A stretch of DNA of 64,000 bases from Thermotogota bacterium (GCA_035447925.1 DAOTHY010000003.1:1474-65473), one strand, 5' to 3'. Numbered from the stretch's first letter, positions 10,720-42,063 are shown. Numbers and translations: made by a program. The notes: generated from the sequence alone by a model not told the origin.

Positions 10720-11463
10720 TTACCCTGCTTGTCTTTTTTTCCCTTTCAACACGTAACGAATAAAAGCCATGATTTGAAAGATCACCTTGAATTTTCGGAC
10801 AGGGTGTTGCAGAATTCGATAAATCCACTCAAGATTAGCTCTTTGAACCCATTTTGGGGCTCGCTTGGCTGTTTGAGCATAAATATCCAATGAGCCTCCT
10901 ACACCGATCGCAATGGTGCAGCCGGTGTGTTTAAAAAAACGCTCAATCCATTTTTCCTGTTTGGGAGCTCCTAGACCAACAAATAAAACGTCTGCCTCAG
11001 ATTCTTTGATCTGGTTGCATATGTTCGGACTGTCTTTTTCAAAATCAAAGTATCCGTTCCGATAACCGGCTGTTTCAATCCCTGTTTTTTCTTGGAGCGT
11101 GTCAGCTGCTTTTTCAGCTACCCCCTCAACGCCACCAAGTATAAACGCTTTTTTGGATATCGAAGCACCAATTTGGCACAATCGATACATGATTTCTACA
11201 CCGGGGTATCTTTCAATGCTGATTTTATTCAACCTGTTCAGTGCCCACGAAAGTCCTGTCCCGTCGGGTATGACAACAGAATCTATGATGGCCTTGGCTG
11301 CAGATTCATCATTGAGATAATAATAGGCGATCTGTGCGTTCATCGTTGTGATCTTTATTTTTCTATTGTTTTCCAGACAATCTCTTAAAAAAAGGTCAAT
11401 ATCCTCTCTTTTTGAACAGATAACTTCCAGTCCAAAAAAATCGGTAATCTGTAGTCTTCTCAT
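10720..11463 (-). CDS. WecB/TagA/CpsF-family glycosyltransferase (N-acetylmannosaminyltransferase-like)
   Basis: Family signature around LFVGLGAPKQEKWI. 247 aa. Confidence 0.8.
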   Translation of the reverse strand: MRRLQITDFFGLEVICSKREDIDLFLRDCLENNRKIKITTMNAQIAYYYLNDESAAKAIIDSVVIPDGTGLSWALNRLNKISIERYPGVEIMYRLCQIGASISKKAFILGGVEGVAEKAADTLQEKTGIETAGYRNGYFDFEKDSPNICNQIKESEADVLFVGLGAPKQEKWIERFFKHTGCTIAIGVGGSLDIYAQTAKRAPKWVQRANLEWIYRILQHPVRKFKVIFQIMAFIRYVLKGKKRQAG

Positions 11464-11557
11464 AAGTCTATTCTAACAGATTCGAGGCTAAAAAAGTGAT
11501 ATAATCTGAACAATCAGAAAAATAATCACACAAAAAAAGAAAATGAAAGGAGAACAG

Positions 11558-12430
11558 ATGAAAAACATCGTTCCGAGAATAGCAGCAATACATGATATAT
11601 CAGGGTTCGGAAGAGCATCCTTGACAGTAATCATTCCAATAATGTCCAATATGGGTTTTCAAGTTTGTCCGATTCCTACGGCGGTTTTGTCAACACATAC
11701 GGGTGGGTTTGAAGGGTTTAAATTTGTAGATTTGACCGAACATCTTCAGGGGTATATTCAGCATTGGAAGACCCTTGATTTACAGTTCGATGCCATCTAT
11801 TCAGGATTTCTAGGCTCTGAAGCACAACTGGATATTGTCAGGGGATTTTTCAAGGATTTCAGGCATGCAGATCAATTAAAGGTGGTAGATCCTGTGTTGG
11901 GCGATGATGGGAAACGCTACCAAACCGTTACCGATCAAATGGTGAGCGGTATGAAAGAACTCATTAAAGAAGCGGATTTGATCACACCGAATATTACCGA
12001 AGCCGCTTTTTTATTGGACAGGCAAGTACCGGATACCATTACCGATGATCAGATCAAAGATTGGGCTGCATCCCTGACTCGGATGGGTCCCACTTATGCG
12101 GTTATCACCAGTGTTCCCGATTTTTCCAAGCACAAATGTACAGCTACGGTGGCTTATAATTCCAAAGATAACCGATATTGGAAAGTAACCTGTGATTATA
12201 TTCCGGCCTTTTACCCTGGAACGGGGGACATGTTTACCAGTGTTTTGGTTGGGAGTCTCATGCAGTCGGACAGTCTTCCCATTGCACTGGACAGGGCGCA
12301 GCGTTTTGTTTCATTGGCCATAAGAGCAACATTTGGTTTTGAAATACCACATCGGGAAGGCGTCCTTTTAGAACGCGTCCTGGATAGCCTCAAATCACCG
12401 GTTACATCCACCAGTTATGAATTGATATGA
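11558..12430 (+). CDS. pdxK: pyridoxal/pyridoxamine kinase
   Basis: PdxK/PdxY N-terminal pattern (IAAIHDISGFGRASLTV..., PTAVLSTHTGGF) and C-terminal GTGDMF anion hole. Start moved to ATG 11558 behind AAAGGAGA. Confidence 0.8.
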   Translation: MKNIVPRIAAIHDISGFGRASLTVIIPIMSNMGFQVCPIPTAVLSTHTGGFEGFKFVDLTEHLQGYIQHWKTLDLQFDAIYSGFLGSEAQLDIVRGFFKDFRHADQLKVVDPVLGDDGKRYQTVTDQMVSGMKELIKEADLITPNITEAAFLLDRQVPDTITDDQIKDWAASLTRMGPTYAVITSVPDFSKHKCTATVAYNSKDNRYWKVTCDYIPAFYPGTGDMFTSVLVGSLMQSDSLPIALDRAQRFVSLAIRATFGFEIPHREGVLLERVLDSLKSPVTSTSYELI

Positions 12431-12486
12431 CAGAGTAGCCATTGATTACCCTTAATTATCGTTTACTTCAGCAAAAAACCTTTTAG

Positions 12487-13692
12487 TTAATCATCCGGTT
12501 TGATAATGGTTACTTCTTCTCTGAGATATTTTTGAGGGGTTTTGATGTCTTTTAATCCGTTACCGGTGATGATCAATGCGATGGTATCGCATGGGCTGAA
12601 GTGGTTTGAATTGGCCAATTTTTTGAAGCCAGCAAAAGAGGCGGCAGCCGCAGGCTCTCCAAAAACACCGGTCTTTCTTGCCAATTCCATGATGGCTTCT
12701 CCGATTTGCTGATCAGTCACACTGATAAAGCCGCCGTTGTATTTTTGGGCGTATTGACAAGCCTTCAAGTAATCTCTGGGTTTGCCTACGCCAATAGAGT
12801 CAGCATCAGTGTTTGGGTTTTCGACATCATCTATGATAAATGGTTCACCTTTCCGGAAGGTTTTTAGGATAGGATCACACCCACTAGCCTGCACACCGAT
12901 TACTTTGGGAATCTTCTCGATGATTCCCAGTTCTTTTAAATCACTGAACCCTTTCAAAAAACTGCTGTAAACCGTTCCATCCCCCACACTGACGAATATC
13001 CAGTCCGGAAGTTGAAGCCTCGTTTGATGGGCTATCTCCAAGGCGCAAGTTTTTTTCCCCTCCAGAAGATAGGGATTAACTGCTGAATTTCTGCAATACC
13101 AATCATTCTTTTCCCCTATTTTCAAAGAAAGGTCAAATGCCTGATCGTATGTGCCTTGAACGGCGAAAACTTGAGCGCCGTAGATAAGCATTTGAGCAAT
13201 CTTTGCTTCAGGGGCACTTTTGGGGATGAAGATGTGAGCATGAACAGAAGATCCGGCACTGATTCCGGATAGGGAACTGGCGGCATTGCCGGTTGATGCG
13301 GCATAAATATCCGAGTATCCTAATTCTATGGCTTTAGCAACTGCAATGATACTTGCCCGGTCTTTAAAGGAGGCAGTGGGATTTTTCCCATCGTCTTTGA
13401 TGAGGACTTCTTTGACCTTGTACTCCTTAGCCAGGTTTGCTGAACTATAAAGCGGCGTATCACCAACTATAACATTTTTAGGAAGCAATGTTTCATCGAT
13501 CGGCAACAGATCGCCAAATTTGGCAATTCCCTTTTTCTCCTCCTTGATCCACTGCGTTTCTTTGGAAAAATGATACACGACTTCCAGCGTTCCCTTTCGG
13601 TTGCCACATTGAGGGCAGGTGTACTGAATATCATCCGGCTCATATACTCTTGAACAGTTGATACACCTTAACGTATAACGGGTCCGACTCAT
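12487..13692 (-). CDS. threonine-synthase-like PLP enzyme with N-terminal C4 zinc ribbon
   Basis: CINC...CPQC zinc ribbon followed by ThrC-family PLP lysine motif (TASFKDRAS) and the glycine-rich loop. ATGA overlap with the upstream PreA-like gene. Confidence 0.65.
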   Translation of the reverse strand: MSRTRYTLRCINCSRVYEPDDIQYTCPQCGNRKGTLEVVYHFSKETQWIKEEKKGIAKFGDLLPIDETLLPKNVIVGDTPLYSSANLAKEYKVKEVLIKDDGKNPTASFKDRASIIAVAKAIELGYSDIYAASTGNAASSLSGISAGSSVHAHIFIPKSAPEAKIAQMLIYGAQVFAVQGTYDQAFDLSLKIGEKNDWYCRNSAVNPYLLEGKKTCALEIAHQTRLQLPDWIFVSVGDGTVYSSFLKGFSDLKELGIIEKIPKVIGVQASGCDPILKTFRKGEPFIIDDVENPNTDADSIGVGKPRDYLKACQYAQKYNGGFISVTDQQIGEAIMELARKTGVFGEPAAAASFAGFKKLANSNHFSPCDTIALIITGNGLKDIKTPQKYLREEVTIIKPDD

Positions 13693-14780
13693 AGAACTCC
13701 CTGAATGGCGTTAACCGGGCATCTACTCTCGCAAAGTCCACATTGAAAACAATTTGATTGGTCTAATACCACTTTTTTGTTATCGAACGATAAAGCATCG
13801 TAAGGACAACTGCGTACGCAAATTCCACAGTGCGTACAGATTTCATGATTGACAGCAGGGTAGCCTGTTTCAAAACGAATTTCGGTATTTTTGTCTTTCG
13901 ATTGACCTCTAAGAGAAATCAAATCTTGGTAGCCGTATTGTTCCATCTTTTTAGGTAGATCTTCAATGATTTTTGAATAAAGGTCTTTGCCGTAAAGCAT
14001 TGCGGCTGAGAGCATCTGAACGGCACTTGCACCGGCACAAATGAATTCTAAAACATCTTCTGCATTTTTTATTCCACCCACGCCAATTACTGGGATATCC
14101 ACCGAGTCCGTAATCAGTTTGATTCTTGAAAGGGCAATGGGTTTTATGACAGGGCCTGAAATCCAGCCTAAACCGCCTTTACTCCCCAGAGGTGATTGTC
14201 CCCTTTTGAGGTTTAATGGATAAGTGGGCCCTACTGAATTGATAGCGACTATTCCATAACCGCCATTGTCTTTGACCATCTGAGCGAAGGCTGCAGGGTC
14301 TGTGATATGAGGGCTGAGTTTGATAAAAACCGGTTTTTGAGTTGCCTCACTGGCCGCTTTTACCGTTTTGGCAATGGGTGAAAGATCCGTCCCGACATAA
14401 TGGGTGGAAAGTTCAAAGGCCGTTGCAAAAGGCTCCACCCGTTTTATCAGTGAGACGATTTCATCTTGCCGATACCCTAAACTGATGATCAGTGGTTGTT
14501 GGAGCGTTTCGTTAATCTGTGGCAGAAATTCAACTACCCATTTTTCGGGCGGGTATTCAGACCACAATTCGGCGTTGATGAGATAATCTTTGCCGCCGAT
14601 GATGCAGGGGTGGGGAACCGGTGCCGCCTTTGAAGAGATGGTTTTACTCACCAGAGCACCCAACCCTTGAGATGCCAGCGAAAGAATCTTTCGGGCATCT
14701 GAAACCAGAGGGCCTGAAGCCGGCATTAATGGGTTTTCTAATTCAATTTTATCGCCTATCTTGACTGATAGATTCATCAA
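13689..14780 (-). CDS. dihydroorotate-dehydrogenase-family flavoenzyme fused to 2x[4Fe-4S] ferredoxin (PreA/dihydropyrimidine dehydrogenase-like)
   Basis: Class-1 DHOD TIM-barrel motifs (NSVGPTYP, GVGGI) plus two C-terminal CxxCxxCxxxCP clusters. Confidence 0.7.
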   Translation of the reverse strand: MMNLSVKIGDKIELENPLMPASGPLVSDARKILSLASQGLGALVSKTISSKAAPVPHPCIIGGKDYLINAELWSEYPPEKWVVEFLPQINETLQQPLIISLGYRQDEIVSLIKRVEPFATAFELSTHYVGTDLSPIAKTVKAASEATQKPVFIKLSPHITDPAAFAQMVKDNGGYGIVAINSVGPTYPLNLKRGQSPLGSKGGLGWISGPVIKPIALSRIKLITDSVDIPVIGVGGIKNAEDVLEFICAGASAVQMLSAAMLYGKDLYSKIIEDLPKKMEQYGYQDLISLRGQSKDKNTEIRFETGYPAVNHEICTHCGICVRSCPYDALSFDNKKVVLDQSNCFQCGLCESRCPVNAIQGVL

Positions 14781-14802
14781 ACCATCTCCTTATCATTTAT
14801 TT

Positions 14803-15849
14803 CTATCCGTATCGTTTGCTAAAGAGTTCAAATAGTTTTTTGTTTTCCCTGACAACATCCAAAGCGTATGCGGCATGGTTTTTAGCGTAGCCGTTTCCGA
14901 TGATCATATTGACATCTTTTCCTACACCTTCTGCCCCTAGAGCCGCTTTGGTGAAACTGGAAGCCATGGAGAAAAAGTAGACGTTGCCATGTTCCTTTGT
15001 TGAAAGCACACAAGACATCTCGGTGTTGGCCGCATTGACGACGTTGATGGTTACGTCGCATAATTCCCCGTCGGTGGCATCATGGACCATACGATAGACC
15101 CCGACGGTATCGGTTGCGTCAGTTTGGAGAATTGTATCGCAGAATCCCAACTCTTCCAATTCTTCTCTGCGGTCGTTGTGATGGATCAAGCCGATGACCT
15201 TTCCCACATTTCCTGTCATCTTTTTTGCCACATACGCACATAATACCCCTGATTTTCCGGCTGCACCTAAAATCATGACTGTGTCGGAGGGTTTCACCAA
15301 TCTGGCTGTTTGAATGGGAGCACCCGCCACGTCAAGGATGGATAATGCCAGAGGTCTGGACATGTCACTTGGGAGTTTAACCACGACACCACTTTCAAAA
15401 ACAATGGCCTTGCCCTCCACTTCGACCTGTTCCCTGTCCAAATGGACTTTTCTAATCCTTTCTATCTTAAGTGGGGTTAAGGAAAGGGATACAAGAGTTG
15501 CCACATGGTCGCCAACCTTAACCTGATGCTTTTGAGACATCTCTTTTGAGATTTCAGCAACGGTTCCGACCAACATACCTCCGGAACCAGTTACGGGGTT
15601 GTGCATTTTCCCCCTCTCAGAAATGATTTCCATGATCCTTGCCGATACTTTCGATTCATCGGCTCCGACTTCTTCCTTGATTTGCCTGAATGATGCGGAA
15701 TCAATGTTTAAGTGTGTTACGTCAATCATGATTTCGTTGTCGTAGGCGGTATTCATTGCATTATTGACCTTCCATGCCGGTTGCGGCAATACCCCCTCCG
15801 GTTCCAATACCCGATGTGTTCCAAATGGACATCCTTTCATGTAGACCAT
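14803..15849 (-). CDS. L-erythro-3,5-diaminohexanoate dehydrogenase-like (Kdd family) NAD(P) oxidoreductase
   Basis: ~348 aa with a mid-protein Rossmann GAAGKSG. The N-terminal region (GCPFGTHRVLEPEGVLPQP...DVTHLNIDSASF) resembles Kdd of lysine fermenters as I recall the family. Assignment is from memory, not a search. Confidence 0.5.
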   Translation of the reverse strand: MVYMKGCPFGTHRVLEPEGVLPQPAWKVNNAMNTAYDNEIMIDVTHLNIDSASFRQIKEEVGADESKVSARIMEIISERGKMHNPVTGSGGMLVGTVAEISKEMSQKHQVKVGDHVATLVSLSLTPLKIERIRKVHLDREQVEVEGKAIVFESGVVVKLPSDMSRPLALSILDVAGAPIQTARLVKPSDTVMILGAAGKSGVLCAYVAKKMTGNVGKVIGLIHHNDRREELEELGFCDTILQTDATDTVGVYRMVHDATDGELCDVTINVVNAANTEMSCVLSTKEHGNVYFFSMASSFTKAALGAEGVGKDVNMIIGNGYAKNHAAYALDVVRENKKLFELFSKRYG

Positions 15850-15860
15850 CCTCCCCTTTA

Positions 15861-16868
15861 TTAAAAGAATACCTTGATTGTGTAATGACTGCTTTCTTCT
15901 TCGAAGTCATTTCTCAGCCAATTTTCCCATAAGGTTAACTGCTTTTCTCGTTTCAGCAGCTCTTTGATGTCTTGATAGAGTTGTTCTTGGCCTTGTTCCC
16001 CACCGGAGAATGCAACGACTTTTAAGATATGATAGCCTAATTCGGTTTTGACAGGCCCGACAACATCGCCTGGATATTTTTCAAAGACGATGTCAAATTC
16101 CTTGAAAACACCCCTTTCAATCCAACCCAAATCCCCTTTGTTGAATTTTGTCAGTTCGTCTTTGGAATGCTCCAGTACAGCTGCTTCAAAACCCAACTGA
16201 CTGATGGTGTTAAAAACGGTGTTTAAATCCGAATCATCGTTGAGCAGAATATGATACAGATGAACGGAATTGCTCTCCTGAGTATTTAATGGATTTTTCT
16301 GCAGGTATTGAGTGATTTCCTCATCGGAAACGTGAACATCATCAAAGAGAATGTCGATGAGTCCGTAATTGGCGATTGCTAACTTTCTCTGCAGTTCCAG
16401 ATGACTTTTATAGTCATCCAGGGTTTCATATCCTTGTGTGATGATGTATTGTTCAAAATCTTCCATCGTCAAGTTGTTTGAGCCCAGCAACTCACTTAAA
16501 AAGGTATCGATATAGCCTTGAACATCGGTTTGCAGGATCTGAACCCCTTTATCCTTTGCAATCTGAATGATGAGGTAGGCATCAATCAGGGTGGAAAGCA
16601 CCCTCTTTTTGTATTCAAGCAACAAATCGTATCCTGCTTCCGTGGATAAAAGCGTTTCGTAAAATCCTTCATTGGACTCTTTTATCCTGAGCAGAGTGAA
16701 AGGCAGGTTGGATTCCCTGTCCAGCACCCTGGCTTCAATCGGTACACCCGCTATGCTGGCGACAACATATGTCGGATCAAGGTTTAGAATATCGATGGAC
16801 TCCTGGGAAAACATCATCATGGGAAGAAAGACCATGATCAGCATTTGGAGAATTGTTTTTATTTTCAT
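15861..16868 (-). CDS. secreted PpiC-type peptidyl-prolyl isomerase (SurA/PrsA-like chaperone)
   Basis: Signal peptide, SurA-like N-terminal helical domain and parvulin domain with GYHILKV. Confidence 0.75.
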   Translation of the reverse strand: MKIKTILQMLIMVFLPMMMFSQESIDILNLDPTYVVASIAGVPIEARVLDRESNLPFTLLRIKESNEGFYETLLSTEAGYDLLLEYKKRVLSTLIDAYLIIQIAKDKGVQILQTDVQGYIDTFLSELLGSNNLTMEDFEQYIITQGYETLDDYKSHLELQRKLAIANYGLIDILFDDVHVSDEEITQYLQKNPLNTQESNSVHLYHILLNDDSDLNTVFNTISQLGFEAAVLEHSKDELTKFNKGDLGWIERGVFKEFDIVFEKYPGDVVGPVKTELGYHILKVVAFSGGEQGQEQLYQDIKELLKREKQLTLWENWLRNDFEEESSHYTIKVFF

Positions 16869-16895
16869 TTTTGGCTCCTTTCACATCTTTTTCGG

Positions 16896-19800
16896 TTATT
16901 CGGTGATGATAATGGGGCGGTTTTTTTTCGCCTCGTTGATCTTTTCTTGAATCGCATCGTAATTTGCTTCGTCCCATCTTTCTTTGGTAAACTGGTTGTA
17001 TTTCCAATCTTCCAGCCAGTTTTCTTCGAAGTCGCCTTGCTCTTGAGCATATCGGTAGACACTGGTTACCTGATCCAGGAAGGTAGCCCGTTTTTCCATT
17101 AGGCTTTCTACTGTCGAGATGAAATTGCGATAGCGATTTTTTTCTGATTCAGTGAGATAAACGTTATTGGCTAAATCGTCAATGCCCCACTGATATGCCG
17201 CTGAGAGCATTTTTAGTCCGTCATCCAGGACATAAAGGGTCTCCTGGTACAATTTATTCTCAAGAAAAGCCTGGGCAATCTGAGAGTAAACGGATGCGAT
17301 ATCATCGGGAACGCCCGTTCTTTGAACGTTGTGCATCTGCTCGGATGCCCATACCCTCATCTGGGCTATTTCCTTGACCTTGGGATATACTTCGGTGACG
17401 GTTCCCGATTTCAACACCAGGTCGATATATTCGGAGTAAATATCTTCCCAATCCGGGAACATTTGCCAGTTTCCAGGCAGGATGTGTATCGCCCGTTCAT
17501 ACCATTGTCCCATCATTTCAAGTGCTTGCGAAGCCTGCTGCGAATGAAGGGTCACCAGCGGCATGAGGATGTCCTTTAAGTCGGGATTTTGATTGATGCG
17601 TTCGACATAATTGGCGGCCAGATTTTTCAACATTACTGCCAAGTTGTAATTGAATTTGGCCATAATCCGGTAGGAATTCTTTTCGTTGAAACATAAGAAA
17701 GAGGTTTCAAAATAATCAATTCCGGTTTGATACATCTGTATATCGTACCAAAGAGAGATATTGACAAAGTTGAGTAAGTCGTTTACAGAATTGAATTTGA
17801 CTTTATTCATCAACTGCTGAACCGCCTGGATATCCTCTTGCAGAGGGAAGTCAAGGTACTGCTTTTGGATGTGGCGCATGCTGTTGTCACTTTGGGTAAA
17901 ATGTTTGGTAATGATCGCCATCTTATCGCTGCTGGCGTTGAGTTCGTCGTATAAGGCCTGCTTTCTTTCAGGCCTTACCATCATCAGGGAGATGTAAAAC
18001 ATACTTTTTCCATAACATCCCAAGCTGTCCAGACTGGTCAGGAAATCGGACAAAGCCCTGTTGTATCGTTTTGTTCTTTCGGAAACCAAGTAGTTCAGAT
18101 TATCGTTAATTTGCATGACATAGTTATTCAGTTTGTTTTCTTCGGTTTTAATGTCCTCGTTTAGTTTATTTAATAGGGTGACTTGCAGTTCCTGTTCGTT
18201 GAATTGGCCGATACTGTTGCCCATTTCAGCCATTTTCTGCTTGATATAGGTATCTTTTTCAAAAGCAGCATATTGTCCTTCTCGATTTTCTAGTTGTTCA
18301 AATAGTTGATTGACTTGTGTTTTCTGATTTTTCAACTGGGTTTCTTGACTCTCGATTTGTCCAAAGCTTGAATAATAGCCGTTTCCTTCCTTGAATTTCG
18401 CCTCTGCTATCACACTGTTGAATTTCAGCCATCCGGAAGTGATACCCACAATCAGGACAAGGGCAATCAACGCCGGCATACGCCAGCCTTTAAAAGACAA
18501 ATGAAAACCCAGCCGTTTTTTAACGTTGAAATAGCGACCGAACCCCAATCCGGTCATCGCCAACGCCCATAATTGATTTGGTAACAGGTGAAGGGGAAAT
18601 TCAGTGAAACTGTGGCCGAGTATTTCGGTAAAGGCTACTGCCAATAAGATCAACAGAATGGCGTCGTCGGGATTTTTTTGGTCGCCTAATATGAGAAAGA
18701 ACATGATGATCAGCAAAACAAGTGTAACAGCCATCGAGAGGAATCCAAACAGCCCCATTTCTCCAAGGACTTGGAAATAATCGTTGTGTGTTCGTTTGAA
18801 ATTGGACCAGGAGTCGATGTATTCAGGTTCATCCTGAACGGCGTCACCCATATAATCCACTGCTGTGAGCATATACGTTCCGATACCGTTCCCGATGAGC
18901 GGGTAATCCTTAAACTGGTAGATGGAAGCCTTCCAAGCCAGCACCCTCGCCTTACCTCCGGTGGTTTGAAATCCCCTGTCATCGAATATGGAAGAAGTTC
19001 TTGCGGCAACGTTTGTGCCCGGAGCCAGTGGGTTATTGGGGTTGGACAACAGGATGGGTAATAGGAGTGCGATAAAGATGATGGCGATTAAGAAGACGAA
19101 ATTGGTCTTTTTCAGGATACCTGCCATCTTTTTAGAATACCCTTCTATTTTTGTGTAATTATCGATGACCTCCTTTTTTCTGCGTATCCATTTGTAGTAA
19201 AAAATCCCGATGATAAAGACGATCACGCCTACCATTAATGAAAGGATAACGGATCGAGTCCCGATTACCAGGACCAAGAAATAGAAAATGGCAAAGTTGA
19301 TCAGTCCCAGCACCTTGATGATCATGATGGGTGTAAAAAATTCAACTCCGGGTTTTTCCTTTCTGGGAGTCCAACCGAAATCATAACTGAGGACGAAGTA
19401 AACGGTAATCGGAAGCAGAGAAGCCAAAAAGTCAGAAACAAAGTTTGGGTTGCCGATGGTGGCTTTGATGGACATTTTTCCGCCACTTCCATAAGACCCA
19501 AGGAAAAAAGACTGACCGGTATAGAAATTTAAAAGCGCTTCAATAGAAACCATCGTTCCGGAGATCATGACGAAAAAGAGAAAATAAGTAATCGCCCGCT
19601 TGTTATCGAGAAAATTCGAAAAGTACAGAACCATGAAAAAGGTCAAAAAAGCGTAAATTCCTATTTCAAATGAAAAAGGAAAATAAAGCGGATTTTCTCT
19701 TAATACCGTAAATGTGGATACCACTGCGGCGATTCCAAACAAAAACCATCCGACGTGGGCCCATGATAGATACAACGTGGTCTCCTTCTTATAAAACTTT

Positions 19801-20003
19801 CTGAGCAAGAACACAGTCATGGAGATCGTAAAGAAAATGATCAGAAAGAAATACTTGGACGTTGAAAATTCGTACGTTAACTTGGGATGGGCAAACATGG
19901 CGATAAAAATAAACGTGAAATATAGAAACACGGATTCCACCGTGGTGAAAAAAGAGCCTGTTTTTATCCCGATTGTCTTGTCATTTTTGCCTCTGCTGCT
20001 CAC
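16896..20003 (-). CDS. O-antigen ligase (Wzy_C) domain membrane protein with ~550 aa C-terminal soluble helical/coiled-coil extension
   Basis: N-terminal half is polytopic with the RfaL/Wzy_C signature (HNDYFQVLGEMGLFG). C-terminal half is hydrophilic and helix-rich. Confidence 0.7.
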   Translation of the reverse strand: MSSRGKNDKTIGIKTGSFFTTVESVFLYFTFIFIAMFAHPKLTYEFSTSKYFFLIIFFTISMTVFLLRKFYKKETTLYLSWAHVGWFLFGIAAVVSTFTVLRENPLYFPFSFEIGIYAFLTFFMVLYFSNFLDNKRAITYFLFFVMISGTMVSIEALLNFYTGQSFFLGSYGSGGKMSIKATIGNPNFVSDFLASLLPITVYFVLSYDFGWTPRKEKPGVEFFTPIMIIKVLGLINFAIFYFLVLVIGTRSVILSLMVGVIVFIIGIFYYKWIRRKKEVIDNYTKIEGYSKKMAGILKKTNFVFLIAIIFIALLLPILLSNPNNPLAPGTNVAARTSSIFDDRGFQTTGGKARVLAWKASIYQFKDYPLIGNGIGTYMLTAVDYMGDAVQDEPEYIDSWSNFKRTHNDYFQVLGEMGLFGFLSMAVTLVLLIIMFFLILGDQKNPDDAILLILLAVAFTEILGHSFTEFPLHLLPNQLWALAMTGLGFGRYFNVKKRLGFHLSFKGWRMPALIALVLIVGITSGWLKFNSVIAEAKFKEGNGYYSSFGQIESQETQLKNQKTQVNQLFEQLENREGQYAAFEKDTYIKQKMAEMGNSIGQFNEQELQVTLLNKLNEDIKTEENKLNNYVMQINDNLNYLVSERTKRYNRALSDFLTSLDSLGCYGKSMFYISLMMVRPERKQALYDELNASSDKMAIITKHFTQSDNSMRHIQKQYLDFPLQEDIQAVQQLMNKVKFNSVNDLLNFVNISLWYDIQMYQTGIDYFETSFLCFNEKNSYRIMAKFNYNLAVMLKNLAANYVERINQNPDLKDILMPLVTLHSQQASQALEMMGQWYERAIHILPGNWQMFPDWEDIYSEYIDLVLKSGTVTEVYPKVKEIAQMRVWASEQMHNVQRTGVPDDIASVYSQIAQAFLENKLYQETLYVLDDGLKMLSAAYQWGIDDLANNVYLTESEKNRYRNFISTVESLMEKRATFLDQVTSVYRYAQEQGDFEENWLEDWKYNQFTKERWDEANYDAIQEKINEAKKNRPIIITE

Positions 20004-20032
20004 TGAAACACCTCCGAAGATTGTCTGTTAAC

Positions 20033-21562
20033 TTATTTTATCATAAAAGAAATGATCAAGCACATAAAAAAGAATATGATGATCAACAGATTGATATAAT
20101 CATAAATCAAAGAATAAAGCGTCATCGACCTTTTTTCAAACGGTATTTTCATATATGTGATGGTTCTGATAAATGGCTGAGATTGTTGGATCACCCTGCC
20201 ATAAGGATCCACCAAACCGGTTATGCCGTTGTTTGAAATGTGGCATATCCAGCTGTTTGTTTCCACCGCTCTGATTTGCAGCTGTTTAAAATGCTGAATC
20301 AAAGCAGTCCGATGTGTAAAATAGCCGTCGTTGGTAATGACGCAGAAAAAGTCCGTATCATTTTTTCTGAAATTGATGAAAACATTTGGAAAAAAAGATT
20401 CAAAACAGATTGGAAAAGCGGCATGCATTCCCTCGACGTCAAAGGTCGTATACTGCTGACCAGGCTTCAAATAATTTCTGAATTTCAGAAATGAAAAGGC
20501 CTTGAAAAGGTTTTCAAAGGGTAAATATTCGGTGAAGGGATTTAATTCAATCTTTCCGTAAAAATCATTTGACAATCCCTTTTCCGGCTCAATCAGTTGG
20601 ACGGCATTGTAATAATTCTGTTCCTCTTCATAGACATGGGGAGCAACTATGGTCAGAGAGCTTTCTGCCGATACCTTTTCAAGCATTTGAACGGTGTTGG
20701 GATAGCGGTTGATGTCGTAGAGAAAATAGGTTTCGGGCAGGATAAACAGATCGGAATCCGGTACATTCCGTTTCACTTGTTCAATCAAATCGTTGAAATC
20801 TTTGATGAGCTCTTTTTCAGAGGCATAGTATTTGTCCAGAGGTGTAATCATCGTCTGGACACCCGCCAATTTCACGGATTGTTCCATTTCATTATATGGT
20901 GATGGCAAGCATGAGTTAATGACGTGGTCGATCGTATACACGCTGCAAATAATCAATGCAGAGAAGATGAGCAATTTTCTTGAAAACCGCCATTTTTTCC
21001 AAAGAAGGTAGATTAGAATATTCACCATGCCGATGCATATCAGCAGCAGTTCTGTCCCGCCTAAAGAGGCCAACTGAAGGATGCCAGTCATGTCAAATAA
21101 GGCATCTGTAAATCGGAATCCAATGAACTTTAATGGTGGTAAGCTCCTCAGAAACTCTGTAAAAAGTAGTAGTGATAAAGTAGAAACAACGAGCAAAACC
21201 GGATGGTTTTTAAACTTTTTTGAAAACCACGAAAAAACGAAGCCAAAAACTCCGAAATACAAGCCTACAAATAGCCCGGCGACGAGATAGACCAAAAAGC
21301 CCATAAGCGGGCTAAACGTGTTAAAAGTCTTGGGAATCTCTCTGATAAAAGCCGGTAAAAGCCACCAGAAAGCGGCTGAATAATAACAATAACCAAAAAA
21401 ATAACCCACAAGAAATCCTTTACTGGGTTTTAATGATTCTAAGGCAATCAATAGAATTGCAAAGGAAAACCATACTGGAATCGACATTAACATGCCGGGC
21501 ATGGAAAATACCATCAATAATGATGAGATAAATGTGAGTCCTAAGCGTGTTCTTTTTCTCAT
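20033..21562 (-). CDS. lnt: apolipoprotein N-acyltransferase
   Basis: 509 aa with an N-terminal multi-TM region and a C-terminal CN-hydrolase domain. 4-nt overlap with the upstream DegT gene. Confidence 0.65.
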   Translation of the reverse strand: MRKRTRLGLTFISSLLMVFSMPGMLMSIPVWFSFAILLIALESLKPSKGFLVGYFFGYCYYSAAFWWLLPAFIREIPKTFNTFSPLMGFLVYLVAGLFVGLYFGVFGFVFSWFSKKFKNHPVLLVVSTLSLLLFTEFLRSLPPLKFIGFRFTDALFDMTGILQLASLGGTELLLICIGMVNILIYLLWKKWRFSRKLLIFSALIICSVYTIDHVINSCLPSPYNEMEQSVKLAGVQTMITPLDKYYASEKELIKDFNDLIEQVKRNVPDSDLFILPETYFLYDINRYPNTVQMLEKVSAESSLTIVAPHVYEEEQNYYNAVQLIEPEKGLSNDFYGKIELNPFTEYLPFENLFKAFSFLKFRNYLKPGQQYTTFDVEGMHAAFPICFESFFPNVFINFRKNDTDFFCVITNDGYFTHRTALIQHFKQLQIRAVETNSWICHISNNGITGLVDPYGRVIQQSQPFIRTITYMKIPFEKRSMTLYSLIYDYINLLIIIFFFMCLIISFMIK

Positions 21563-22680
21563 AATTCTTGGATGGTTTCTTTTAATGTCTGGGCAATGTA
21601 AATTTGATCTTCCTCGCTCAAATCATTGTAAAAGGGCAAAGCTACACTCCTTTGGCCAACACTTTCAGTCACGGGTAATAATCCATGTGAAAACCCGAAT
21701 TGTTTTTCGTAGAAGGGCTGAAGGTGGATCGGAGAAAAGTAGTTTCTGCAGCCGATTCCCTTTTCTCTTAATCTTTTTAAAACAGTATCCCGCTCAATCT
21801 CTTTATCTAAGGTGATAACGTAAACAAACCAACTCATCTGGGTTGCATAGTCTTTTATCACAGGCGTGCTGACCCCCTCAATGGGAGAGAGAAGATGTTG
21901 GTACCTGTCGGCAACTGTTTTTCTCTTTTGTATAAAGAGGTCGATTTTTTTTAGCTGTTCAATTCCCAATGCGGAACTGATTTCGTTCAGCCGATAATTG
22001 TACCCTAAACGGACGTGTTCCAACCAAGAGCTACCTTCGCCACGCCCCTGATTGCGCATGGATCTGCTTTTGATGTAAATGTCTTCACTGTCAGTTACAA
22101 TCACGCCGCCCTCTCCGGTAGTGATCTGTTTGTTGGGATAAAAAGCAAATGCTCCCGCTTCTCCGAAACTACCGCATCTACGACCTTTGTATTCACTTCC
22201 CAAAGCCTCACACGAATCCTCTATCACCAACAGCCGATGTTCATGAGCGACGGCCATGATCGGGTCCCAATCGCATGGATGGCCAAACACATCAACGGTG
22301 ATAATGCCTTTGATCTGCGGATCCTTTCTCGCCAATTCTTCGATGCTTTTGGGATCAATGTTGAAGGTGTCTTCTTCAATGTCTGCAAAAACGGGAATAG
22401 CGCCAACATAAAGCAGCATATTTGCTGTTGTGATAAATGAGAATGATGTGGTTATGTATTTATCTCCCGGACTTATTTCCAAAGACCTTCCCACCAAATC
22501 CAGTGCACTGGTACCGCTATTAACGGCTACTGCGTATTTTCGCTGAGAATATTCCGCAATTCGCCGTTCGAATTCCTCGACTTTTGGTCCGATGCTTAGA
22601 ATAGAAGAATTCAGGACATCCATCACGGCTTTTTTTTCTTCGTCGCCTATTTCCGGTAAAGCAAGTGGTATCGTTTTCAT
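21559..22680 (-). CDS. DegT/DnrJ/EryC1/StrS-family PLP-dependent sugar aminotransferase
   Basis: Family fold with PLP lysine region (SFSFITTANML?/...KQITTGEGG). Start moved to ATG 22680 behind AAGGTGA. Confidence 0.8.
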   Translation of the reverse strand: MKTIPLALPEIGDEEKKAVMDVLNSSILSIGPKVEEFERRIAEYSQRKYAVAVNSGTSALDLVGRSLEISPGDKYITTSFSFITTANMLLYVGAIPVFADIEEDTFNIDPKSIEELARKDPQIKGIITVDVFGHPCDWDPIMAVAHEHRLLVIEDSCEALGSEYKGRRCGSFGEAGAFAFYPNKQITTGEGGVIVTDSEDIYIKSRSMRNQGRGEGSSWLEHVRLGYNYRLNEISSALGIEQLKKIDLFIQKRKTVADRYQHLLSPIEGVSTPVIKDYATQMSWFVYVITLDKEIERDTVLKRLREKGIGCRNYFSPIHLQPFYEKQFGFSHGLLPVTESVGQRSVALPFYNDLSEEDQIYIAQTLKETIQEL

Positions 22681-22687
22681 TTTAATC

Positions 22688-23683
22688 TCACCTTGATTCC
22701 ATAGAATGTTCAATATTCTCGACGATATGGTTTTCTATGCCTTTTTCCGCAACTTTTAGTGCATTAATGATGGCAATCGAGTCGGAGTTTCCATGCGCTT
22801 TGATTGATGGCGACCTGACTCCCAAAATATAGGCTCCGCCGGTATTTCTTGAATCAGTTTTGAATTTTAAGTCGGCAAATACCGGTTTCAAAAGTAGCGC
22901 TCCCAATTTTACCATAAGACCATGGGAATGGATAGAAGATTTCAAAAGGGATGAAATAAAACTCCCGATACCTTCCATGGACTTTAAAGCGATATTTCCC
23001 GACCAACCATCCGTGACCACCACATCCACGGTTCCAGATGAAATATCCCGTCCTTCTACAAAACCGACGAAATGAGCATTTATTTGCTCTTTAAGAAGTT
23101 TATAGGCCTCTTTAATCAATTCAGTTCCTTTGTCTTCCTCAGTTCCCACATTTAACAGGCCGATTTTGGGCTTCTCGATACCGTTGATTTGCTGAAGAGC
23201 CATTCCCATTCTTGCAAAGGAAAGATAGTTTTCCACTTTGCAGTCCAGATTGGCACCGCCGTCCAACAAAATCGTTTGCCCTTTTTTGTTGGGAATCGGA
23301 GTGGCGATCGCCGGTCTGGCGATACCCTTAATCCGTCCGATCACAAAGGTTGATACGGCTAATAGGGCACCGGTGTTGCCGGCGCTGATCAAGGCGTCTG
23401 CCTGTGCATTTTTGATCAGATTTGCCGCCATGTAAAGAGAAGTTTCACGCCGTCTTAAGATATGGGATGGTTTTTCGTCCATTTTGAATACATCCGGTGC
23501 ATCAACGATTGAAACATCTTCAAATTGATTCAAAATAGTGGAATACTTTTCTATTTGATCCTTCTTACCCACAAGAACAACACCGGAACGAATTATTTTT
23601 TTGGATTTTGCTTCCTCAACGCCTTTAATGATAGCCTGTGGGGCATGATCGCCCCCCATTGCATCGATTGCTATTACTCGCAT
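22688..23683 (-). CDS. plsX: phosphate acyltransferase PlsX
   Basis: MRVIAIDAMGGDHAP N-terminus; full-length PlsX pattern. Start moved to ATG 23683 behind AGGAGGG. Confidence 0.9.
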   Translation of the reverse strand: MRVIAIDAMGGDHAPQAIIKGVEEAKSKKIIRSGVVLVGKKDQIEKYSTILNQFEDVSIVDAPDVFKMDEKPSHILRRRETSLYMAANLIKNAQADALISAGNTGALLAVSTFVIGRIKGIARPAIATPIPNKKGQTILLDGGANLDCKVENYLSFARMGMALQQINGIEKPKIGLLNVGTEEDKGTELIKEAYKLLKEQINAHFVGFVEGRDISSGTVDVVVTDGWSGNIALKSMEGIGSFISSLLKSSIHSHGLMVKLGALLLKPVFADLKFKTDSRNTGGAYILGVRSPSIKAHGNSDSIAIINALKVAEKGIENHIVENIEHSMESR

Positions 23684-23815
23684 ATATCCCTCCTGCATAA
23701 TCAATTATTTCTGTCACTTGGAATTATACACCATTTTTTGGCGTCACACATATTGGTTCGCCTTTGCTTTTTGTATGAGGAAATGGAAGAACCACATCAA
23801 AGTATCGAAAGTATA

Positions 23816-23830
23816 GTATAATAGATTATC
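23816..23830. promoter_or_regulatory. PerR/Fur-like box overlapping the -10 of the rubredoxin operon promoter
   Basis: gTATAATaGATTATc matches 12/15 positions of the 7-1-7 Per box TTATAATnATTATAA. It lies 24 nt upstream of the rubredoxin Shine-Dalgarno site. Confidence 0.35.
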
Positions 23831-23853
23831 ATTTTAAAACGGAGGTAATAAAA

Positions 23854-24012
23854 ATGGACAAGTACGTCTGCACAGTATGTGGTTATGTCTACGATCCTTC
23901 AGCAGGAGATCCGGACAACGGAGTGGAACCTGGAACAAAATGGGAAGATGTACCTGAGGATTGGGTATGTCCGTTATGTGGTGCCGGAAAAGACGCCTTC
24001 GAACTGGAATAA
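23854..24012 (+). CDS. rubredoxin
   Basis: 53 aa, [15 protein letters not shown]...[14 protein letters not shown], with two CxxCG knuckles. Missed by the ORF track (<60 aa). Shine-Dalgarno GGAGGT. Confidence 0.9.
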
Positions 24013-24028
24013 AGAGGTGATGGACTAA

Positions 24029-25213
24029 TTGGCTATCAGAAAAATTAAAGAAGATATATTTAATATTGGCGCCATTGATTGGGACAGAGAGTTATTTGAC
24101 GAATTGATACCTCTTCCTGAGGGGACTTCTTACAACGCCTATGTTGTTTTTGGGAGTGAGAAGATAGCTTTAATTGATGCAGTCGAACCGGAGAAGGAAG
24201 AAGAGTTTTTGCGAAATTTGAAGGACTTGAATCCGGAACGGATCGATTATATAGTCTCCAATCATGCGGAACAGGATCATTCGGGGTTAATCCCGCAAGT
24301 ATTGGAACGGTATCCCGAGGCAAGAATCGTTACCAATGAAAAGTGTAAGGGTTTTCTTATGGATTTGTTGCCGTTGAAAGAGGATGCCTTTCACATCGTG
24401 GCGGATAATCAAACGCTGTCCTTGGGAAATAAAACATTGGAGTTTATCATAGCGCCGTGGGTACATTGGCCGGAGACCATGTTTACTTATTTAAGAGAGG
24501 ATAGGGTTTTGTTCTCGGGAGATTTTCTCGGTTCGCATTTGGCCCTCAGCAACACTTTTTCAAATGACGATTCACAAACATATATGGCTGCTAAACGTTA
24601 TTTTGCCGAGATCATGATGCCCTTCAGGCCGATGATCAAAAAACACCTTCAGCGGTTGGAAGCGTATGATATTCAAATGGTTTGCGCCGTACACGGACCG
24701 GTTTATAAAAACCCTTCCTTTATCATCAATCATTATAAAGACTGGGTATCGGATGACGTGAAGAATTTGGTGCTCATTCCTTATGTGTCTATGCACGGCA
24801 GCACGTTAAAAACCGTTGAGTTTTTAACGGATGAATTAACTAATCGAAAGATTGAAGTCCTTCCTATCAATATGACCAAGGCTGATTTAGGGAAATTAAC
24901 CATCGAGTTGGTGGATGCTGCAACCATTGTATTAGCCAGTTCAACCGTTCTAGTGGGACCTCATCCGCAAATGCTTTACACAGCAGCTATGATTAACGCT
25001 TTGCGTCCTAAAACGAAAAACATTTCCATCATTACCTCTTATGGGTGGGCTTCACAAGCAACGAAGACCTTAAAATCCCTTCTGGGAACCCTTCAAGCTC
25101 AATGGCTTGAGACGATCGATTATAAAGGCTACCCGAAAGAAGGAGATTTGGAAAGAGTCAGAGTCTTGGCAGAACAAATTGCTCAGAAGCATCGAATGTT
25201 AAACCTTTTATGA
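24029..25213 (+). CDS. fprA: flavodiiron protein (FprA / rubredoxin:oxygen oxidoreductase-type)
   Basis: MBL-like di-iron domain (HAEQDHSG) followed by a flavodoxin-like domain. Probable TTG start. Confidence 0.85.
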   Translation: MAIRKIKEDIFNIGAIDWDRELFDELIPLPEGTSYNAYVVFGSEKIALIDAVEPEKEEEFLRNLKDLNPERIDYIVSNHAEQDHSGLIPQVLERYPEARIVTNEKCKGFLMDLLPLKEDAFHIVADNQTLSLGNKTLEFIIAPWVHWPETMFTYLREDRVLFSGDFLGSHLALSNTFSNDDSQTYMAAKRYFAEIMMPFRPMIKKHLQRLEAYDIQMVCAVHGPVYKNPSFIINHYKDWVSDDVKNLVLIPYVSMHGSTLKTVEFLTDELTNRKIEVLPINMTKADLGKLTIELVDAATIVLASSTVLVGPHPQMLYTAAMINALRPKTKNISIITSYGWASQATKTLKSLLGTLQAQWLETIDYKGYPKEGDLERVRVLAEQIAQKHRMLNLL

Positions 25214-39784: not shown

Positions 39785-41056
39785 ATGACAGAACAACAGA
39801 AAAAGCTGATTTGGAGCGATTGCACGCCCGAAGAGTGGAACGATTGGAAATGGCAACTCAGAAACAGGATTATGGATGTTGAGACGCTGAACAAAGTCAT
39901 CAAATTGACAGAAGAGGATAAACGGGCTATAGAGCACAGTTTGGAATTCTTAAGAATGGCGATAACGCCTTATTACGCATCATTGATAGATCCCAATGAT
40001 CCGTTTGATCCTATTCGGCTTCAAGCGGTTCCGTCGGTGCATGAATTGACCGTTGCGCCGGAGGATATGTTGGATCCGCTTCACGAGGACGTGGATTCAC
40101 CAACACCAGGAATGACGCATCGCTATCCCGATAGAGTGTTGCTATTGGTGACTGACCGTTGTTCCATGTATTGTCGTCACTGTACTAGAAGGAGAAAAGC
40201 AGGTGAAACCGACAAGGCCATGCCGTTGGAATACGTGGAAAAAGCAGTTGAATATCTAAAAGAACATACAGAAGTGAGAGATGTTTTGATTTCTGGCGGA
40301 GATCCCTTAACACTTCCCACGGCTCATTTGGAAAAGATTATCCAGAAAATTGCTGCGGTTTCTTCGGTTGAGATTATCCGCATCGGGTCAAGAACACCGG
40401 TTGTTTTACCTCAAAGAATCGATGATGAATTGATTGCCATGCTGAAAAAATACAAAACGATCTGGCTGAATACTCATTTCAATCATCCGGCGGAAATAAC
40501 AACAGAAAGCATTCAGGCGTTGGATAAATTGGTTGAAGCGGGGATCCCTTTGGGAAATCAATCGGTTTTGTTAAGAGGTATCAATGATAATCCTGAAATC
40601 ATGAAATGTTTAGTACAGAAACTGGTTAAATACCGGGTCAGACCTTATTATATGTATCAATGCGATTTATCACAAGGGTTGTCTCATTTCAGAACGACTG
40701 TAGCCAAAGGACTGGAAATTATGGAGTATTTGAGGGGTCATACATCGGGGTTTGCCGTTCCCACTTATGTTATTGATGCCCCCCATGGCGGTGGGAAGAT
40801 TCCTGTTATGCCTCAATACTTGATTTCTTATGGGGAAAACAAGGTCATTTTGAGAAATTACGAGGGTGGATTATTTGTCTATGAGGAACCAAAAGAATAT
40901 CATGCCACAGCAGATCCGGATGGTTGGCTTGCCGAAAACCGTAAAAGCAAAGAAGGATTGGCCAGTATGTTGTCGGGAACAAATAAAAAGCTGGTTCCGG
41001 GTGAAGCTGTGCGATTACACAGAGCCGGAGAATGGAAACGAACACATTCTCAATAA
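39785..41056 (+). CDS. kamA: L-lysine 2,3-aminomutase (radical SAM, PLP)
   Basis: CSMYCRHCTRRR radical-SAM cluster motif. Full KamA-length protein (423 aa) with the conserved N-terminal PEEW..WQLRNRI region and the PLP-lysine region. Confidence 0.85.
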   Translation: MTEQQKKLIWSDCTPEEWNDWKWQLRNRIMDVETLNKVIKLTEEDKRAIEHSLEFLRMAITPYYASLIDPNDPFDPIRLQAVPSVHELTVAPEDMLDPLHEDVDSPTPGMTHRYPDRVLLLVTDRCSMYCRHCTRRRKAGETDKAMPLEYVEKAVEYLKEHTEVRDVLISGGDPLTLPTAHLEKIIQKIAAVSSVEIIRIGSRTPVVLPQRIDDELIAMLKKYKTIWLNTHFNHPAEITTESIQALDKLVEAGIPLGNQSVLLRGINDNPEIMKCLVQKLVKYRVRPYYMYQCDLSQGLSHFRTTVAKGLEIMEYLRGHTSGFAVPTYVIDAPHGGGKIPVMPQYLISYGENKVILRNYEGGLFVYEEPKEYHATADPDGWLAENRKSKEGLASMLSGTNKKLVPGEAVRLHRAGEWKRTHSQ

Positions 41057-42063
41057 ATCATTTGTTTGATTTTCTTGCTGAAAAGAGCCGAATAATCTCG
41101 ATTATTGGGATGGATAAAAATGTAGGCAAGACCACTCTGTTGAACTTTCTCTTAAAGGGGCTTCGGGATCGTCATGTGCCTGCGTTGGTATTGAGTATTG
41201 GTCGTGATGGAGAGGCAAACGACAGTGTTGAAAATACTTCCAAACCACCCATCATCATTTACAGGGGGGGATGTTTTTTAACAATTAAAGAGTTAATCAG
41301 AAACCCGTCATCAATCGAGATTCTGGATTGCTTTAACAGTAAAGTTTCTGGCTCCAAAATTATTTTAGGACGTGCCCTGCAGGATACACAAGTTCAATTG
41401 GTCAATCCCGCCAATCAGAAAGTCCTTTCTGAAATGATCCGTATAAGCCTTGAACGTTGCGGAGGAGGAACTGTTTTTATTGATGGTGCATTAGACAGGT
41501 TGTCTCATGGTTGCTCTTCATTAATCGATGGCGTTTTTGTTTGTGCCGGTGTTCAATCGGAAGGGGATTTGTCAGAAATCATCAAAAAAACACGGTTGTT
41601 GATTACTCACCTACAAAATGAGGTGTGCGACAATCAAATAAAGCAGTTAATTTTGAACCAGCGCCTGGAAAAGGGAACACTTTTGATTAGAAATGAAGAA
41701 ATAATCGACTGTATTCGAGGGACTTTGATTGATACAACAGACCTTGATGAAAAAATCAAGAATAATGATATAATCTATACAACGGGTGTAATCACCGACA
41801 AGATTATCAACAGATTCATAGAGAGGGAACGGATGATAACCATGGTGCTGATTGACGGCACCAAAGCCCGTATCAGTCAAAGGTACAGTGCAATGATGCA
41901 CAGAATGGGGATTCGTCTTCGGATGATCAACAGAATTCCTGTATATGGGCTTTCGATAAACAGTATAGGAATAAGGCGATCCATGAACCCGTCAAAAGTA
42001 TTGACGAGTTTTCGTGAAGCTTTCAAAGAGATTTATGTATTTGACACAACATATTTAGTGTAA
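41032..42063 (+). CDS. hypothetical P-loop (Walker A GMDKNVGKTT) protein translationally coupled to kamA
   Basis: 343 aa ORF overlapping the kamA 3' end by 25 nt. Walker A-like GxxxxGKTT near the N-terminus and a possible Walker B (VFIDGALD). I do not recognise the family. Confidence 0.45.
   Translation: METNTFSINHLFDFLAEKSRIISIIGMDKNVGKTTLLNFLLKGLRDRHVPALVLSIGRDGEANDSVENTSKPPIIIYRGGCFLTIKELIRNPSSIEILDCFNSKVSGSKIILGRALQDTQVQLVNPANQKVLSEMIRISLERCGGGTVFIDGALDRLSHGCSSLIDGVFVCAGVQSEGDLSEIIKKTRLLITHLQNEVCDNQIKQLILNQRLEKGTLLIRNEEIIDCIRGTLIDTTDLDEKIKNNDIIYTTGVITDKIINRFIERERMITMVLIDGTKARISQRYSAMMHRMGIRLRMINRIPVYGLSINSIGIRRSMNPSKVLTSFREAFKEIYVFDTTYLV

Follow-up and report, generated by a model that had tools for sequence, protein, structure and literature searches.

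Gene content and spacing of the locus

Three adjacent genes on the minus strand occupy positions 12,487 to 15,849 of a 64,000-nucleotide (64-kb) stretch of a Thermotogota bacterium genome (GCA_035447925.1, DAOTHY010000003.1:1474-65473), hereafter referred to as the window. In order of transcription, they encode a Kdd-family dehydrogenase (A, or kdd), a flavin- and iron-sulfur-dependent reductase of the UacX type (B) and a pyridoxal 5'-phosphate (PLP) enzyme with the fold of threonine synthase (ThrC) (C). B and C are a real, translationally coupled pair, probably a fragment of a reductive uric-acid degradation cluster, next to which kdd probably stands as a separate lysine-fermentation gene. 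The features of the three genes are:

14803..15849, minus strand: A, Kdd-family NAD(P)-dependent beta-amino-acid dehydrogenase (L-erythro-3,5-diaminohexanoate dehydrogenase family; NF052381, 7DL3)
13689..14780, minus strand: B, UacX-type reductase with a flavin mononucleotide (FMN) domain of dihydroorotate dehydrogenase (DHOD) fold and a C-terminal 2x[4Fe-4S] ferredoxin domain (Pfam, homologs)
13716..13838, minus strand: two CxxCxxCxxxCP [4Fe-4S] motifs of B, residues 315-326 and 344-355
14391..14414, minus strand: shortened active-site loop of B, ELSTHYVG, residues 123-130 (alignment to 5KSW/1EP1)
12487..13692, minus strand: C, ThrC-derived PLP enzyme with an N-terminal C4 zinc ribbon
13606..13665, minus strand: C4 zinc-ribbon motif of C, residues C10, C13, C26 and C29 (alignment)
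12979..13365, minus strand: active-site segment of C, with Lys110 (SFKDR), A137, L209 and D238

An earlier note on this sequence had described the trio as one tightly coupled unit with junctions of 22 and -4 nt. Its open reading frames (ORFs) and spacing were reproduced, with A at the same coordinates (15849..14803; 348 aa), B at 14780..13689 (363 aa counted from a TTG codon) and C at 13692..12487 (401 aa). The 22-nt A-B spacer assumes the TTG start at 14780, and becomes 25 nt with the next codon, ATG 14777. The latter (yielding a 362 aa product) is used in public gene calls and lies 3' of an AGGAGA Shine-Dalgarno site, and is probably the true start of B. B and C overlap by 4 nt (ATGA).

The trio closes an eight-gene co-directional array (23704 to 12487, minus strand) encoding PlsX, a DegT-like aminotransferase, Lnt, a 1035 aa Wzy_C/O-antigen-ligase-like protein, a SurA-like peptidyl-prolyl isomerase, Kdd, B and C. 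Its gaps, from PlsX to C, measure -26, -4, 29, 27, 11, 22 and -4 nt, so that kdd is separated from the SurA-like gene by a shorter gap (11 nt) than from B. Because the whole array is equally tight, tight spacing is not special to these three genes, and within a long conserved co-directional array it constitutes weak evidence of a common pathway. A promoter and terminator scan of positions 11400-24200 returned counts at or below shuffled expectation and gave no information on operon boundaries, and Rfam and tRNA scans of the 64-kb window produced no matches. The nearest public sequences to the three genes come from Thermotogota metagenome-assembled genomes of anaerobic digesters.

Orthologs of B and C in uric-acid degradation clusters

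Gene B combines Pfam DHO_dh and Fer4 domains and carries two CxxCxxCxxxCP motifs, in agreement with the earlier description of a PreA/DHOD-like flavoenzyme with two 4Fe-4S clusters. It falls below every DHOD and PreA cutoff (163.5 vs 270 for the pyrD family, 142.8 vs 335 for PreA), and its architecture, a DHO_dh FMN domain plus iron-sulfur clusters with no FAD/NAD(P)H domain, is that of UacX. Full-length comparison gives 53% identity between B and the DHO_dh+Fer4 protein of the Clostridium butyricum uricolytic cluster; B is also 51% identical to a Kosmotoga pacifica protein and 52% to a Thermosipho melanesiensis protein (P0319), the last two encoded next to SsnA. Orthology with UacX was judged on these cluster homologs from C. 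butyricum, Kosmotoga and Thermosipho rather than on the assayed Clostridioides difficile sequence (Q181U4). Alignment to 5KSW/1EP1 shows that the ELSTHYVG loop of B is 9 residues shorter than its class-1 DHOD counterpart (ELNISCPNVKHGGQAFG) and is missing the catalytic-loop Cys, and the C. butyricum cluster homolog has the same shortened loop. Because of this shortened, Cys-less loop, the alignment indicates that the proton donor in UacX-type reduction must be a residue other than the DHOD Cys. B is named here as a predicted 2,8-dioxopurine (yanthine) reductase. Elsewhere in the window (34064-38014, plus strand) are genes for two sets of 2-oxoacid:ferredoxin oxidoreductase subunits, a possible source of reduced ferredoxin for B.

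Gene C has a PALP/ThrC fold and scores 198.9 bits against TIGR00260 (thrC; cutoff 167.1). Its predicted structural model (mean predicted local distance difference test score 90.7) finds its best PDB matches among threonine synthases (TM-score 0.88-0.91), and its sequence is 32-39% identical to solved ThrCs (2ZSJ, 1UIM, 2D1F, 6CGQ) and 38-39% to the Aquifex enzyme. The PLP lysine is retained (Lys110 in SFKDR), and the N-terminal CxxC...CxxC motif (C10, C13, C26, C29) is invariant in a 12-sequence alignment, so that the description of C as a ThrC-fold enzyme with a C4 zinc ribbon stands. The ribbon was considered as a marker of new function and rejected as such, because canonical-motif (archaeal-type) ThrCs carry it too. 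Three positions set C apart. With respect to the Thermus thermophilus enzyme, T88 is replaced by A137 (ASTGNT to ASTGNA); R160 by L209, with NSVNPxRxEGQK becoming NSAVNPYLLEGKK through a one-residue insertion and a Q to K change; and N188 by D238, with VGNAGN becoming VGDGTV and the AGN lost. All three residues are conserved in the four solved ThrCs and in 22 canonical-motif zinc-ribbon ThrCs. The resulting C-type signature (STGNA, NPx[L/M/T]xEGKK, VGDG) is invariant in all Thermotogota orthologs and predominates among the 150 nearest 50%-identity cluster representatives of C. The public names found for C all read threonine synthase. Against the YgeX model (NF006058) C reaches only 43.6 bits (cutoff 276), and it is 24% identical to true YgeX over 224 residues. 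Convergent with C, 56 nt from its stop codon, lies a pyridoxamine kinase gene (11543-12430, plus strand; NF005491, 388 bits vs cutoff 231), a neighbor seen also in loci L013-L016 and not in L011 or L012.

Reductive uric-acid degradation through 2,8-dioxopurine ("yanthine") has been described recently (Li et al., 2025, PMC12507026; Liu et al., 2025, bioRxiv 10.1101/2025.04.24.650524). The Escherichia coli cluster comprises xdhD-ygfM-ygfK-ssnA-hyuA-ygeW-yqeA-ygeY-ygeX, and a C. difficile variant features UacX and UacY. XdhD converts urate to 2,8-dioxopurine, which is dearomatized by YgfK or, in C. difficile, by the PydA-like FMN/FeS protein UacX; SsnA and HyuA then act as the ring-opening enzymes, removal of the ureido groups falls to YgeW/UacY and YgeY, and YgeX converts 2,3-diaminopropionate to pyruvate and ammonia (PMC12507026; bioRxiv 10.1101/2025.04.24.650524). 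The UacX-type reduction is unfavorable and has to be pulled forward by ring opening through the hydrolase SsnA, and C. difficile UacX together with SsnA yields ureidomethyl-hydantoin from yanthine in vitro (PMC12507026).

The earlier note could not name a pathway for this gene combination; for B and C, the genomic context of their orthologs in Kosmotoga and Thermosipho supplies one, the reductive uric-acid cluster (PMC12507026). In K. pacifica, the orthologs of B (51%) and C (58%) overlap by 4 nt inside a single cluster that begins with YgeY (M20), a carbamoyltransferase and two amidohydrolases (one hydantoinase-like, the other SsnA), and continues after C with Fer2, MocA, XdhC, two FAD subunits, Fer2, a molybdopterin subunit and a transporter. 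NCBIfam models support these assignments (YgeY, 616 bits vs cutoff 321; SsnA, 454 vs 444; molybdopterin subunit XdhA-like), and the same gene order recurs in six metagenomic Kosmotogaceae-like loci. T. melanesiensis has the set split into two loci, YgeY-OTC-Hyd-SsnA-B and C-Fer2-FAD-FAD-Fer2-Mo, and in Marinitoga C is followed by Xdh genes. The C. butyricum locus, of the C. difficile type, encodes a true YgeX (515 bits vs 276), UacY, SsnA and Xdh proteins alongside its B homolog. Since adjacency of UacX and C with a 4-nt overlap belongs to the full Kosmotogaceae cluster, B-C can be read as an inherited fragment of it. In the Kosmotoga clusters (L006 137-1926; L098/L099), YgeY is preceded by two further conserved proteins (55-73% identity), a Pyr_redox_2 flavoprotein and a distant RlmN/Cfr relative with weak radical-SAM similarity.

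The distribution of the C type was assessed by scanning a genome collection with the C alignment and metagenomes with K. pacifica YgeY, the counts covering the 600 stretches listed for each scan. Among the matches listed, the first scan yielded 80 loci, a single one from Thermotogota, and the C-type signature was present in 47 of them, spanning at least 10 phyla. Of the 38 C-type loci flanked by 5 kb or more, again among the matches listed, 30 had one or more uricolytic partners and 24 had two or more. Canonical-motif ThrCs from archaea and Aquificaceae had a partner at 1 of 18 loci (Fisher p=1.6e-7 vs the C type, for loci that are not phylogenetically independent). In an initial tally at 40% identity or more (39 loci, matches listed), the partners comprised ornithine carbamoyltransferase (OTC)-like proteins (21), SsnA (15), YgeY (13), molybdopterin, FAD and Fer2 subunits (9 each) and UacX (3); YgeX was found at none of the genome-collection loci among the matches listed. 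The 80 YgeY-anchored metagenomic loci, a biased sample of the matches listed, held the C type in 34 cases, YgeX in 11 and both in none. C type and YgeX are mutually exclusive across the 64 cluster loci examined, and orthologs of C fill the YgeX slot of uricolytic clusters.

Two further patterns emerged from these loci. A second ThrC-like group, encoded right after YgeY (~1.2 kb offset) in L121, L122, L124, L127, L130, L134, L137, L138, L143, L145 and L146, keeps STGNA and the two CxxC motifs, with a loop that fits neither NPxxxEGKK nor the canonical NPxRxEGQK, and may constitute a further subtype. C-type loci of Chloroflexota and Actinomycetota (L022, L030, L034, L042, L060, L082) encode two carbamoyltransferase paralogs side by side, one about 52% and the other about 26% identical to the OTC-like protein of K. 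pacifica. UacX is often absent from them, which fits the F420-dependent alternative proposed for Chloroflexota (PMC12507026).

Linkage of kdd to the B-C pair

The product of gene A scores 269.5 bits against the NCBIfam Kdd equivalog NF052381 (cutoff 200), a model that spans the N-terminal 178 positions only, and matches the solved 3,5-diaminohexanoate dehydrogenase 7DL3 over its full length (E=1.5e-114, residues 5-347 on 4-350). Profile searches thus confirmed the suspected Kdd family membership.

The order PlsX-DegT-Lnt-Wzy_C-SurA-Kdd-B-C is repeated in two diverged relatives, L011 and L012, in which identity to the window is 58-59% for B, 52-55% for C, 75-79% for Kdd and 40-56% for the five upstream housekeeping genes. 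A third locus, L013, is an identical copy of part of the window and has the same Wzy_C-to-C order. Across the clade, Kdd is 75-88% identical, compared with 40-59% for the neighboring genes. The five housekeeping genes upstream of kdd match the trio in both synteny and spacing and have diverged as fast as B and C. In the lineage of L001, L002 and L018, in which Kdd is 87-88% identical, ~8 kb are inserted between kdd and B, and the B-C overlap is kept. The insert (L001/L002 11164-19156; L018 741-8918) encodes a MASE6-GGDEF protein, a flavin reductase and two large proteins of 1081 and 793 aa with no Pfam match. Kdd was found at none of 64 other C-type loci examined, and kdd lies next to B-C in one Thermotogota clade only.

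The neighborhood-conservation check proposed in the earlier note therefore gave a divided answer. The B-C pairing held, its overlap being kept across lineages; the link to kdd, confined to one clade and broken by an insertion in one lineage, did not. Together with the lack of Kdd at the 64 other C-type loci and a lone kdd in Pseudothermotoga lettingae, these patterns speak against the trio as one unit. We judge kdd to be a neighbor of B-C rather than a functional part of the pair, placed beside it only because of conserved local synteny.

Genes that could accompany kdd in a pathway are found elsewhere in the window:

39785..42063, plus strand: kamA (39785-41056) and an overlapping kamB-like gene (41032-42063) (TIGR03820, NF052386)

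The kamA product (lysine 2,3-aminomutase), encoded 24 kb from kdd, scores 592.7 bits against TIGR03820 (cutoff 525.4). The kamB-like product falls just below the cutoff of NF052386 (lysine 5,6-aminomutase reactivase KamB; 207.1 vs 210). The two genes overlap by 25 nt, are preceded by coaD and followed by a ribosome hibernation factor gene, and have no kamC, kamD or kamE beside them. The reported absence of kamDE, kce and kal holds for the 64-kb window under Pfam and NCBIfam annotation, to which the kamA/kamB-like pair must now be added as present. These two genes are likely pathway partners of Kdd, which most likely forms part of a dispersed lysine-fermentation gene set.

In P. lettingae, the solitary kdd is followed by a 174 aa ORF with no Pfam match and then by panC (pantoate-beta-alanine ligase). 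A role of Thermotogota Kdd as beta-alanine or beta-glutamate dehydrogenase, considered on account of the panC neighbor, was set aside given that A is a full-length, above-cutoff Kdd with kamA nearby. The window also carries a LysO-family lysine exporter gene (30896-31519, plus strand). Near its start, a pseudouridine-5'-phosphate glycosidase-like gene (Indigoidine_A; 3189-4172, plus strand) follows glnA. Just past the window start (L180 5466-9860) lie genes for a PfkB kinase and an ABC transporter with two BPD_transp_2 permeases, a combination that suggests nucleoside or pseudouridine salvage.

Interpretation and relation to known systems

We favor, at a probability of roughly 0.6, the reading of this locus as a fragment of a uric-acid cluster, with C in the YgeX role, lying beside a separate lysine-fermentation kdd. 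B-C would be a two-gene piece of the Thermotogota reductive uric-acid/2,8-dioxopurine cluster, inherited with its 4-nt overlap. In B, electrons, probably from reduced ferredoxin, would pass through the two [4Fe-4S] clusters to FMN and reduce (dearomatize) 2,8-dioxopurine. C would be a ThrC descendant that kept its PLP lysine and fold and lost the presumed O-phosphohomoserine phosphate site, with D238, in place of Asn188, matched to an ammonium or ureido group and not to a phosphate. It is predicted from its motifs and context to be a beta-eliminating lyase, which would carry out a PLP-dependent alpha,beta-elimination on 2,3-diaminopropionate (or its 3-ureido precursor albizziin) to give pyruvate and ammonia. 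The earlier proposal of a beta- or diamino acid substrate would thus probably hold for the diamino acid, 2,3-diaminopropionate being the substrate of the slot held by C. We infer these substrates and the electron donor, as well as a genome that encodes the Xdh-type molybdoenzyme, SsnA, hydantoinase, YgeY and carbamoyltransferase elsewhere, as in Thermosipho. The kdd product would be a genuine Kdd-family beta-amino-acid dehydrogenase, belonging with the scattered lysine-fermentation genes.

Several observations weigh against this reading. Pfam and NCBIfam annotation revealed no Xdh-family, SsnA, hydantoinase, YgeY or carbamoyltransferase gene in the 64-kb window, where a tblastn search with all K. 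pacifica cluster proteins matched only B and C. The stretches of ~10 kb and ~5 kb past the window ends contain housekeeping and transport genes and no uricolytic gene, and neither they nor the window hold an SsnA homolog that could sit beside B. B and C represent non-consecutive pathway steps, yet their genes overlap in at least three lineages, and the kdd-B-C adjacency outlasts divergence down to 52-59% identity in B and C. The loci of both collection scans are not phylogenetically independent, and their counts derive from the 600 stretches listed per scan. C scores above the thrC cutoff. Lastly, that T88, R160 and N188 form the O-phosphohomoserine phosphate site of ThrC is an assumption; the role was reportedly described by Omi et al. 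in 2003 from analogue structures of the T. thermophilus enzyme.

Isolation of B-C in this clade would also be expected if the pair were a relic of a purine cluster kept for another job after loss of the rest, be it reductive pyrimidine catabolism, with B as a PydA-type uracil reductase, or the scavenging of external 2,3-diaminopropionate-like intermediates. Databases name B homologs dihydrouracil or dihydrothymine dehydrogenase, Li et al. noted the resemblance of UacX architecture to clostridial PydA (PMC12507026), and uracil would be a product of the pseudouridine glycosidase encoded in the window. No dihydropyrimidinase or beta-ureidopropionase gene lies nearby, however, and Thermosipho has the same pathway split over distant loci. 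B shares 104 conserved columns with its cluster-embedded orthologs, with one E/D change in the window's clade, and C shares 122, with none changed. This retention argues against a change of substrate, and we regard the relic explanation as unlikely. The same lack of clade-specific change at conserved positions speaks against the notion that Kdd, B and C make up a self-contained pathway for a beta- or diamino acid, independent of other uricolytic enzymes. A diamino acid could, for instance, undergo successive steps catalyzed by C and Kdd, with B reducing or oxidizing an enoate or cyclic intermediate. Such a pathway would account for same-strand adjacency in no fewer than three lineages separated by deep divergence (L011, L012 and L013/window) and for the lack of any other uricolytic gene within about 79 kb, and its chemistry is conceivable in that a diamino acid is the substrate of the slot filled by C and Kdd removes amino groups at the beta position. 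It is nevertheless quite improbable, given that the five upstream housekeeping genes are as syntenic and as tightly spaced, that the ~8-kb insertion in L001, L002 and L018 separates kdd from B and leaves the B-C overlap intact, that the 64 other C-type loci lack Kdd and P. lettingae has kdd alone, and that Kdd is a full-length match to true Kdd with kamA and a kamB-like gene nearby.

We see a comparably small chance that C catalyzes an undescribed PLP reaction, such as direct urea elimination from albizziin or a replacement, with the excised UacX-ThrC-like pair of this clade and the unusually conserved Kdd beside it forming an autonomous short pathway that dispenses with SsnA, hydantoinase, YgeY and Xdh. 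The most conventional explanation, a housekeeping threonine synthase next to an unrelated dihydroorotate or dihydropyrimidine dehydrogenase, draws on the TIGR00260 score (198.9 vs 167.1), the 38-39% identity and TM-score of about 0.9 to Aquifex ThrC, the uniform public naming and the fact that the window has no other ThrC gene. It conflicts with the T88 to A, R160 to L and N188 to D replacements and the loss of AGN, with the absence of hom and thrB from the 64-kb window, and with the uricolytic clusters in which C orthologs stand to the exclusion of YgeX; B, for its part, lies under all DHOD and PreA cutoffs and has no DHOD Cys loop. An ordinary threonine synthase is an unlikely identity for C, and the explanation as a whole is very improbable.

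The assignment has consequences beyond this locus. C-type genes are named "threonine synthase" across Thermotogota, and the type occurs in at least 10 other phyla. If it is the terminal purine lyase, threonine biosynthesis would be over-called, and uric-acid and purine degradation under-called, in numerous anaerobes of environmental origin, among them Chloroflexota, Atribacterota, Synergistota, Acidobacteriota and Thermotogota. If true, this would also be a case of neofunctionalization, in which a gamma-elimination/hydration enzyme became a beta-eliminating lyase via loss of three residues that we take to bind phosphate. Among the 80 metagenomic YgeY loci, a biased sample of the matches listed, the C type is commoner than YgeX (34 vs 11), and the pathway defined in gut bacteria may therefore use a different last enzyme in most environments.

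The B-C pair belongs to a known kind of system that was defined recently, and its putative ThrC-derived YgeX substitute would be a variant of it; in the literature searched, we found no mention of ThrC-like enzymes tied to uricolytic clusters or of such a substitute. As in the lysine-fermentation Kdd (7DL3; NF052381), A is full-length and above cutoff, with kamA and a kamB-like gene in the window, but it is not clustered with kamDE, kce and kal and is a solitary gene in Thermotogota. B shares with class-1 DHOD and PreA/PydA the TIM-barrel FMN domain and a PreA-like C-terminal pair of [4Fe-4S] motifs, and differs from them in its sub-cutoff scores, its shorter loop lacking the SCPN-loop Cys and the absence of an adjacent PreT or PyrK partner gene. 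Compared with the uric-acid clusters of Kosmotoga and Thermosipho, where orthologs of B and C accompany YgeY, SsnA, a hydantoinase-like amidohydrolase, a carbamoyltransferase and an Xdh-type molybdoenzyme, the window has only two of roughly seven functions. Thermotogota clusters themselves depart from the described pathway in having a ThrC-derived PLP enzyme instead of YgeX and a short OTC-like carbamoyltransferase (329 aa) that scores below the YgeW cutoff. C has the fold and SFKDR motif of ThrC (TIGR00260) and the zinc ribbon common to archaeal-type ThrCs, but differs at three conserved sites, and its orthologs are found in a purine-catabolic context rather than with hom and thrB. With YgeX (NF006058/TIGR03528), the C type shares the PLP fold-type II (PALP) and the same gene-cluster position, whereas its N-terminal zinc ribbon and its descent mark it as a branch of the ThrC family.

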